Origin: a virus
Taxonomy: Duplodnaviria; Heunggongvirae; Uroviricota; Caudoviricetes
Length of the DNA: 8,103 nucleotides
Strand: one strand, 5' to 3'
IMG/VR virus record: IMGVR_UViG_2695420792_000011
Location: 1 to 8,103 of that record
Below, in pieces: positions 6,625-7,395 of the stretch. How positions within the stretch are numbered: position 1 is the stretch's first letter; every line of letters begins with the position of its first letter. The position numbers were made by a program, and so were the translations under genes. The notes under the pieces were generated by a model, which saw only the letters and a program-made list of their open reading frames with translations, was not told the origin of the DNA and made no database searches.

Positions 6625-6654
6625 AACCACCCTCCTCATTACACTGAATGTGCA

Positions 6655-6672
6655 AACAGTATCATCACTGTT
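6655..6672. promoter_or_regulatory. Inverted repeat AACAGT-atcatc-ACTGTT about 30 bp upstream of the Panacea gene start; candidate operator
   Basis: Perfect 6-bp arms with a 6-bp spacer read directly from the sequence. Its position in the 5' leader/promoter region fits an autoregulation site, but no promoter boxes could be placed confidently. Confidence 0.3.
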
Positions 6673-7321
6673 ATCTCAACCTAACACGAACAAAAAAGTT
6701 TTGGAAGATTGCAAGAGCAATTCACTGTGTTTATAACCAGCAAATGACTGTACATATACACAGGTTACAAATTGGTGGCGAATTATACCTGCAGAAGTTG
6801 CGATGTCAACAAAGCGACCATCACAGTGTTTTGCATCTGACACTGTTATGACAAAAAATCTTTTGATAGGTTCCCAATAGGCTCCCACAAAACACATAAC
6901 CAATTGTTTTTCAAAAACGATACATCCTATCGAGCATTGGTGCAACGCTAAACCGACCACTCCAGTGAACGTCAGTTTTTTCAGGCATTGCGCTGGTTTG
7001 GTTGATTTTTTGCATTTCAGAATTACCGTGCATTTTCAAATGTAGAGATTATTTTATCGATATATCATGGGGTTATGTTATTCAGCATCACTATTCAGGA
7101 GGCTCAATAGCGGGGTACTATACCATAACAACAGGAAGCGCCTGTCTCATTGCAAAAGAAAATTGAGATCCTCTCAAGGCATGAAGCTCTCACGAAGTGA
7201 TGGAAATAATCTTATTAGCCGTTAACTTTGTTAAGGCCAATGATAAACAATCCAGGTTCGACGATAAATAAAAAATCACACATTAAACTCTGGTGATATA
7301 TCTCCCTGCTAATAGCATTGA

Positions 7322-7352
7322 TAGAGAAAAAAGAACCCAATAAATATTGGGT
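7322..7352 (-). terminator. Intrinsic terminator for the 7396-8103 gene: hairpin acccaat-aaat-attgggt followed on the minus strand by UCUUUUUUCUC
   Basis: 7-bp stem 7335-7341/7346-7352 with the minus-strand T-tract at 7322-7332, about 45 nt downstream of the stop at 7396-7398. Confidence 0.6.
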
Positions 7353-7395
7353 CCTTTTATATAATGCCTTCCATACTATCGAAGAACTTCACATA

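Follow-up and report, generated by a model that had tools for sequence, protein, structure and literature searches.

What occupies the long AT-rich interval between a Panacea-domain gene and the next gene to its right, in a virus-derived stretch of DNA where such spacers would be expected to be short? In the window, by which we mean the whole 8,103-nucleotide stretch that was analysed, the DNA between panA and yjbM holds no intact annotated gene from 6625 to 7395 (771 bp). Inside these limits lie the 756 bp (6640-7395) that a first-pass annotation had set apart, with a GC content of 37.4% against 45.3% for the whole window. That annotation had described a non-coding gap, unusually long for a compact phage region, ahead of a downstream orphan gene, and had offered three possible contents: the promoter and long leader of the Panacea operon, a small RNA or a decayed gene. 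On sequence comparison, the gap is almost certainly the right-hand prophage/host junction of a lambdoid (mEp460/1720a-02-type) prophage integrated in E. coli dusA, and it divides into five parts.

6625-6867: upstream region of the PanA/PanT toxin-antitoxin cassette, with panA on the minus strand
6868-6929: attP arm, mEp460-type
6930-6937: identical 8-bp core, TCGAGCAT when read on the plus strand and ATGCTCGA in the dusA direction
6938-7033, minus strand: the first 32 codons of dusA, orphaned
7034-7395: chromosomal yjbM–dusA intergenic region, including the yjbM terminator

Phage DNA within the gap is confined to 6625-6937, of which the phage side proper (6625-6929) makes up 305 bp, and the E. 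coli chromosome contributes 6930-7395 (466 bp). As about 60% of the gap is bacterial chromosome, the premise that it is long for a phage region was wrong.

By comparison, 6930-8103 is chromosomal, 6625-6937 is phage DNA and the cassette boundary lies at about 6867. Alignment with K-12 follows the minus strand of the window from 7420→6930 with a single mismatch, through the 3′ end of yjbM, a 362-bp intergenic region and the first ~100 nt of dusA, and similarity ends sharply at 6930. A megablast search of complete E. coli genomes with 6500-7500 as the query found matches in 4307 of 5426, the whole query being covered in 75; the annotations beneath the match read 'Panacea domain-containing protein', 'tRNA-dihydrouridine synthase' and 'DUF2713'. 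Approached from the phage side, the records of the lambdoid phages 1720a-02, phiSTEC1575-Stx2k, PhiR47_1 and mEp460 match the window only as far as 6930-6937, and in two of the matching phage records this position is base 1 of the record. With a probe spanning the junction, unoccupied E. coli genomes align from 6930 onward only. The segment 6938-7395 is found in 4303 of the 5426 genomes, its usual place being in front of an intact dusA, and the junction composed of arm, core and stub is found in 665 of them; since such a junction is present in ~12% of complete E. coli genomes, a defined boundary helps in annotating prophages.

The integrase and the other junction lie outside the window and were read in NZ_CP128581, a syntenic genome with 99.9% identity. 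In a four-way alignment of att sequences, the attP of mEp460 consists of the phage arm seen in the window, TCGAGCAT and a phage mimic of dusA; the attB of K-12 consists of the complementary halves; and the two prophage junctions are the reciprocal recombinants. The octamer at 6930-6937 is the sole block identical across attP, attB and both junctions, and at the other junction, in NZ_CP128581, identity with K-12 starts at this same octamer. The attP of the free phage mEp460 and the empty attB of K-12 are exactly the sequences predicted from the two junctions. Around the core lies an imperfect repeat of ~28 bp, TTGCACCAATGCTCGATAGGATGTATCG versus TTGCTCCTATGCTCGACTGGACGGACAG, in which 19/28 positions are identical (counted from the aligned sequences) and the perfect 8-bp core is central. 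Judged from this alignment, strand exchange must fall inside the 8-bp core at 6930-6937. The comparison shows that site-specific recombination at TCGAGCAT split dusA. The phage, which beside int has a diverged version of the ~35 codons that open dusA, used its tyrosine integrase to recombine attP with attB inside dusA codons 32-35; integration rebuilt dusA at the int end and left the original promoter region and first ~35 codons stranded at the far end, as in the window.

The two ends of the divided gene, and the region that now precedes the rebuilt copy, can be placed as follows.

6911-7033, minus strand: orphaned dusA 5′ end, recognized by translation and identical to the 5′ end of K-12 dusA
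7034-7328, minus strand: chromosomal dusA upstream region, now without its gene, identical to the K-12 yjbM-dusA intergenic region
13556-13643 of the syntenic-genome locus (NZ_CP128581), outside the window: 88-bp dusA/int divergent region

Minus-strand translation from 7033 yields DusA residues 1-35 (MHGNSEMQKINQTSAMPEKTDVHWSGRFSVAPMLD) followed by RMYRF and a stop at 6911-6913, so that the stub, reading into phage DNA, forms a 40-aa by-product ORF. RefSeq annotates the stub as a partial tRNA-dihydrouridine synthase pseudogene between prophage cargo and the DUF2713 gene. The label of non-coding gap is apt in that 6625-7395 holds no intact gene, but 6929/6938-7033 represents the first 32-35 codons of dusA, a partial gene in RefSeq. 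In NZ_CP128581, which carries the same prophage, the remainder of dusA lies ~39 kb leftward and carries the annotation of an intact gene (345 aa), which begins with the diverged, phage-borne copy of 35 codons (MHDNHETQKINQTSVMPEKTGVYWNSRFSIAPMLD), in frame with chromosomal dusA. Located 88 bp from the rebuilt dusA, on the opposite strand, is a tyrosine recombinase gene whose product has 365 aa (Pfam Phage_integrase, E = 1.6e-20); the mEp460 integrase record carries the depositor's note 'INT_Rci cd00796'. Integration cuts the rebuilt dusA off from its native promoter, and its expression must come from the 88-bp region of phage origin that it has in common with the divergent int.

The stub might instead be taken for a decayed phage gene or a mutational pseudogene, and the gap for a scar of gene loss, given that RefSeq flags a partial CDS and that the stub stops after 5 foreign codons. 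However, up to a sharp breakpoint the stub agrees with the 5′ end of K-12 dusA at every position (100%), the rest of dusA survives intact at the opposite end of the prophage and the attP core of the sequenced free phage mEp460 falls at that same breakpoint. We give gene loss next to no probability, and the four-way att alignment rules out gene decay. A gene remnant is indeed present, as had been suggested; it comes, however, from host dusA, whose 5′ end was severed by site-specific integration, and not from the decay of a phage gene. The two ORFs with junk-like translations that had been listed for the gap are also present (6648-6851 on the plus strand, 67 aa; 6676-6960 on the minus strand, 94 aa), and Pfam returned zero matches for both and for the 40-aa stub ORF. 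The minus-strand ORF at 6676-6960 crosses the phage/host junction and so cannot be a conserved gene.

Integration into dusA has been described before. As set out in the available portions of Farrugia et al. 2015 (NAR 43:4547, PMC4482086), integrase-bearing prophages and islands enter a single site in the dusA 5′ end; their DAI-type integrases are Rci-related, the element supplies a dusA 5′ end and the original end becomes the outer boundary; semi-conserved, imperfect direct repeats of ~21 bp flank the elements, which excise as circles and so restore a wild-type dusA, and Escherichia is a well-represented genus. Measured against that account, the present locus has the same single insertion site, with its breakpoint in dusA codons 32-35 (6930-6937); the same replacement 5′ end, the stub being in the window, the replacement in NZ_CP128581 and the mimic in the mEp460 attP; the same tyrosine recombinase gene next to dusA, as seen in the syntenic genome; and the same flanking imperfect direct repeats, here of ~28 bp and likened to the others by their published description. 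The element here is a lambdoid, mEp460-type prophage with PanAT cargo at its non-int end, and relative to those portions of the paper we find no substantive difference. In its organization, the junction is the arrangement defined there, with the insertion site, replacement end, adjacent integrase and repeats all found by comparison. What had been a puzzling AT-rich spacer is resolved to a mapped attachment junction, which sets the true prophage boundary, assigns yjbM to the chromosome and explains the stub.

On the chromosomal side of the junction, three features bear on the remaining proposals for the gap.

7396-8103, minus strand: yjbM (DUF2713), with a full-length Pfam match (E = 1.5e-167), syntenic with K-12 b4048
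7329-7358, minus strand: yjbM intrinsic terminator, a 13-bp stem plus a U-tract
7163-7177, minus strand: hairpin ttgaga-tcc-tctcaa, followed by UUUUCUUUU (7162→7154)

The supposed orphan gene, whose stop lies at 7396, is chromosomal yjbM, as its DUF2713 match attests. In K-12 (locus 2322-3307), a single longer DUF2713 gene seems to have been split into yjbL (255 nt) and yjbM (708 nt); strain CP66-6 has an intact 340-aa DUF2713 version, several strains are annotated as 'frameshifted' and the copy in the window has the length of K-12 yjbM.

Two hairpins of the region had been read as minus-strand terminators. The one placed at 7335-7352 is a real terminator: its stem spans 7329-7358, 38 nt past the yjbM stop codon, and folds with -15.2 kcal/mol (z = -4.83), a stability reached by 0/200 shuffles. 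For the other, at 7163-7177, the sequence and the U-run were reported correctly, but the terminator role does not hold. This hairpin folds with -9.1 kcal/mol (z = -0.81), 37/200 shuffles fold at least as well, 2/6 of its pairs are G-C and the terminator scan did not pick it up. Structure conservation in homologous regions separates the two in the same way: where divergent strains differ in 7329-7358, the changes (G·U→A-U and C-G→U·G) leave the stem paired, but in 7163-7177 GAG→TTT disrupts the stem in CP66-6 and A→T weakens it in PK5, neither change being compensated. By these measures, the hairpin at 7163-7177 is a chance feature and not a terminator.

The small RNA fares no better. An Rfam scan of the whole window (E ≤ 1) gave only AbsR28, on the yjbM terminator, at 23.6 bits where the gathering score is 50, and the K-12 annotation has no RNA gene between yjbM and dusA; with a single sub-threshold match of this kind, and with the second 'terminator' a chance hairpin, the proposal is not borne out. 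It is likewise very improbable that two minus-strand terminators enclose a single phage intergenic region made up of the whole 756 bp and containing the long Panacea leader, a small RNA of the phage or both. In keeping with such a region, the left third of the gap does hold the predicted panAT promoter and leader, and the terminator at 7329-7358 is real. Yet 6930-7395 is chromosomal and occurs in ~4300 genomes, most of them without the prophage, one of the two bounding hairpins is the chance feature at 7163-7177, no Rfam family reaches threshold and K-12 lists no RNA gene. A prophage/host junction in dusA remains our reading of the gap, and within it the phage side can be divided further.

Next to the core lies the attP arm, which contains a pair of repeats.

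6868-6876 and 6879-6887: direct AGGYTCCCA repeats AGGTTCCCA and AGGCTCCCA, 11 bp apart

Phages mEp460, PhiR40_1, Lys8385Vzw and SKA5 have only window positions 6868-6940 in common with this prophage end, and the arm at 6868-6929 is conserved in dusA-integrating phages irrespective of their cargo. AGGYTCCCA occurs 2 times in the window against an expectation of 0.14, and three further copies of AGGYTCCCR surround the mEp460 attP (locus positions 2511-2519, 2698-2706 and 2710-2718), on both sides of the core. From their repetition and position, we infer that the AGGYTCCCR repeats are candidate arm-type integrase/excisionase sites; the available portions of Farrugia et al. 2015 do not mention the motif. 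An inverted GGGAACC is located near the int side of the mEp460 attP.

The attP and attR of lambda have a core with arm-type Int and Xis sites on its flanks, and cargo ('moron') slots beside the att sites; arm sites of a lambda-type attP can reach beyond 100 bp. The present locus is like the lambda att sites in its short identical core and its conserved arm, where short direct repeats, spaced by one helical turn, are candidate arm sites, and it is like the moron slots in that exchangeable, self-contained cargo with its own promoter (here predicted) and terminator lies beside att. Unlike lambda, it has a different integrase family, target and core sequence, and its int and excisionase-like PrtN gene are on opposite sides of attP.

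The cargo beside the arm is a toxin-antitoxin operon.

6151-6624, minus strand: panA, Panacea-domain antitoxin gene (Pfam SocA_Panacea, E = 5.9e-18)
6628-6638, minus strand: panA Shine-Dalgarno region GAGGAGGGTGG, recognized in the sequence and invariant in 9 distinct alleles
5580-6128, minus strand: panT, a membrane-acting toxin by annotation (PanT in phage PhiR47_1), in the same operon downstream of panA
5558-5585: bidirectional terminator with a 12-bp stem (z = -4.05) that overlaps the panT stop codon
5547-6867 in the window, 1464-2500 in the mEp460 locus and 395-1491 in the strain 121 locus: cargo slot

PanA matches PF13274 (DUF4065/SocA) over residues 27-123; the Panacea domain is the only one that Pfam found in the protein, with no HTH. 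We place the start of panA at the ATG at 6624, following RefSeq for the 99.9%-identical genome, and the ATG at 6639 just opens a longer ORF. In sequence, PanA does not differ from the CDS annotated as WP_000287252.1, which Table 1 of Kurata et al. 2022 (PNAS, PMC8832971) gives as the experimentally validated PanA of E. coli STEC O31. According to the available portions of that paper, the partner toxin, PanT_Esc.col, depolarises the membrane, and the proteins were expressed from inducible vectors. Compared with the PanAT of STEC O31 as reported there, the antitoxin here is identical and the partner has, in its translation, a hydrophobic C-terminal half, as described; the toxin accessions are WP_000019185.1 in the published table and text available versus WP_021563277.1 in the syntenic annotation here, a variant. 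The same portions of Kurata et al. 2022 contain nothing on a native promoter, a leader or an attP-adjacent position. The arrangement is already known in both its components: a described type of prophage junction beside a toxin-antitoxin pair with a validated PanA.

At its far end, the operon meets the PrtN-type excisionase gene (5247-5546, plus strand), and the terminator at 5558-5585 lies between this gene and the convergent panT (5580-6128, minus strand). The place of PanAT, between the PrtN-type excisionase gene and the arm, is taken in mEp460 and in strain 121 of E. coli by a pair of small, unrelated ORFs of 57 and 177 aa. As other ORFs occupy the same slot in mEp460 and strain 121, we regard 5547-6867 as an exchangeable cargo cassette; the PanAT version is present in ~79 of the ~665 dusA-junction genomes. 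Among viral contigs, 31 encode PanA, nearly all at ≥97% identity, with a single homologue at 76%, on contig L034. There (1-1564), the 76%-identical PanA and a 193-aa downstream partner without a Pfam match come directly after a dinI-like gene. The location of this copy on the int/dinI side, and not on the excisionase side, suggests that the cassette moves between cargo slots.

Upstream of panA, the cassette carries a predicted promoter and two repeats.

6809→6782, minus strand: predicted panA-panT sigma-70 promoter TTGACA-N16-TATAAT, 12/12 consensus positions
6655-6672: palindrome AACAGT-ATCATC-ACTGTT in the panA leader, a candidate operator
6819-6850: inverted repeat CATCACAGTGT-N10-ACACTGTTATG just upstream of the -35 element, with 11-nt arms that are 91% complementary

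Of the contents first offered for the gap, the promoter and long leader of the Panacea operon are the ones that prediction supports. The perfect TTGACA-N16-TATAAT is unique in the window and arose in 0 of 200 shuffles; transcription is predicted to start at ~6775, which would give a leader of ~150 nt before the ATG. We propose that panAT would be transcribed from this predicted consensus promoter of its own. Folding of the panA leader (6610-6776) gave z = -0.5 and no structured leader. The palindrome at 6655-6672, present exactly as first noted, is part of the PanAT cassette and lies outside the conserved attP arm. As an RNA hairpin it scores z = -0.66; it has an ACAGTG motif in common with the inverted repeat at 6819-6850, and the RNA fold of both gives z ~ -0.7. 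Because the ACAGTG repeats fold unexceptionally as RNA, they would, if functional, be DNA sites rather than RNA hairpins, and the inverted repeat at 6819-6850 is a candidate site for a regulator. Across the 9 distinct alleles, neither the promoter hexamers nor the RBS nor the leader palindrome varies; in the inverted repeat, 4/32 columns do. Since only ~21/330 columns are variable (a chance expectation of ~5%), the invariance of the promoter and the palindrome is weak evidence.

Across the 31 PanA-encoding contigs, nearly all of which are ≥97% identical, neither covariation nor a phylogenetic footprint of the panAT regulatory region was obtained. The region upstream of the 76%-identical PanA on L034 is unrelated, and a scan of it finds no consensus promoter, so the regulatory architecture is not conserved across the PanA family. 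The perfect-consensus promoter of the window fronts a PanA that has no recognisable DNA-binding domain.

The ACAGTG and AGGYTCCCA repeats, which cluster within 280 bp of the core, could together be read as Int/Xis arm sites of one long attP arm, the promoter then being incidental or serving recombination control. We consider this improbable. Everything left of 6868 is missing from mEp460, PhiR40_1 and SKA5, although these phages agree with this prophage in core and arm and have a similar int; the segment 6625-6867 accompanies PanAT rather than the integration module; and the promoter aims at panA, with a strong RBS downstream. The ACAGTG repeats were rejected as integrase arm sites, being absent from phages with the same arm and core. 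Our preferred reading assigns 6625-6867 to the cassette and leaves the candidate arm sites to 6868-6929. It provides exact coordinates both for the predicted native promoter of a PanAT pair with a validated PanA and for candidate arm-type sites of dusA-targeting integrases, neither of which is given in the available portions of Farrugia et al. 2015 or Kurata et al. 2022; the value of the analysis is mainly that of a correction.

Integration also brings host DNA within reach of the cassette. On the chromosomal side, divergent E. coli hardly differ over 7153→7034, where an extended -10-like TGGTATAGT lies at 7125→7117, consistent with a dusA promoter region. After integration, this predicted promoter region lies ~400 bp upstream of panAT on the same strand, and the terminator scan predicted none between it and panA. 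Because the stranded, putative dusA promoter points in the same direction, with no predicted terminator before panA, read-through into panAT is possible; such read-through, and translation of the 40-aa DusA′-fusion peptide, would be possible by-products of integration. We also considered whether panAT might come under two-layer control only in the lysogen, with its own promoter checked through the ACAGTG repeats and read-through from the stranded dusA promoter added to it. This seems doubtful to us; if true, integration would put a phage defence/addiction module under a rewired housekeeping promoter.

Away from the junction, window positions 1-342 and 2973-4650 cannot be aligned to the NZ_CP128581 prophage, to which the window is elsewhere 97-99% identical. 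These unaligned segments indicate, by comparison of the two sequences, mosaic exchange in the early region. The first 300 bp of the window are GC-rich (~0.63).
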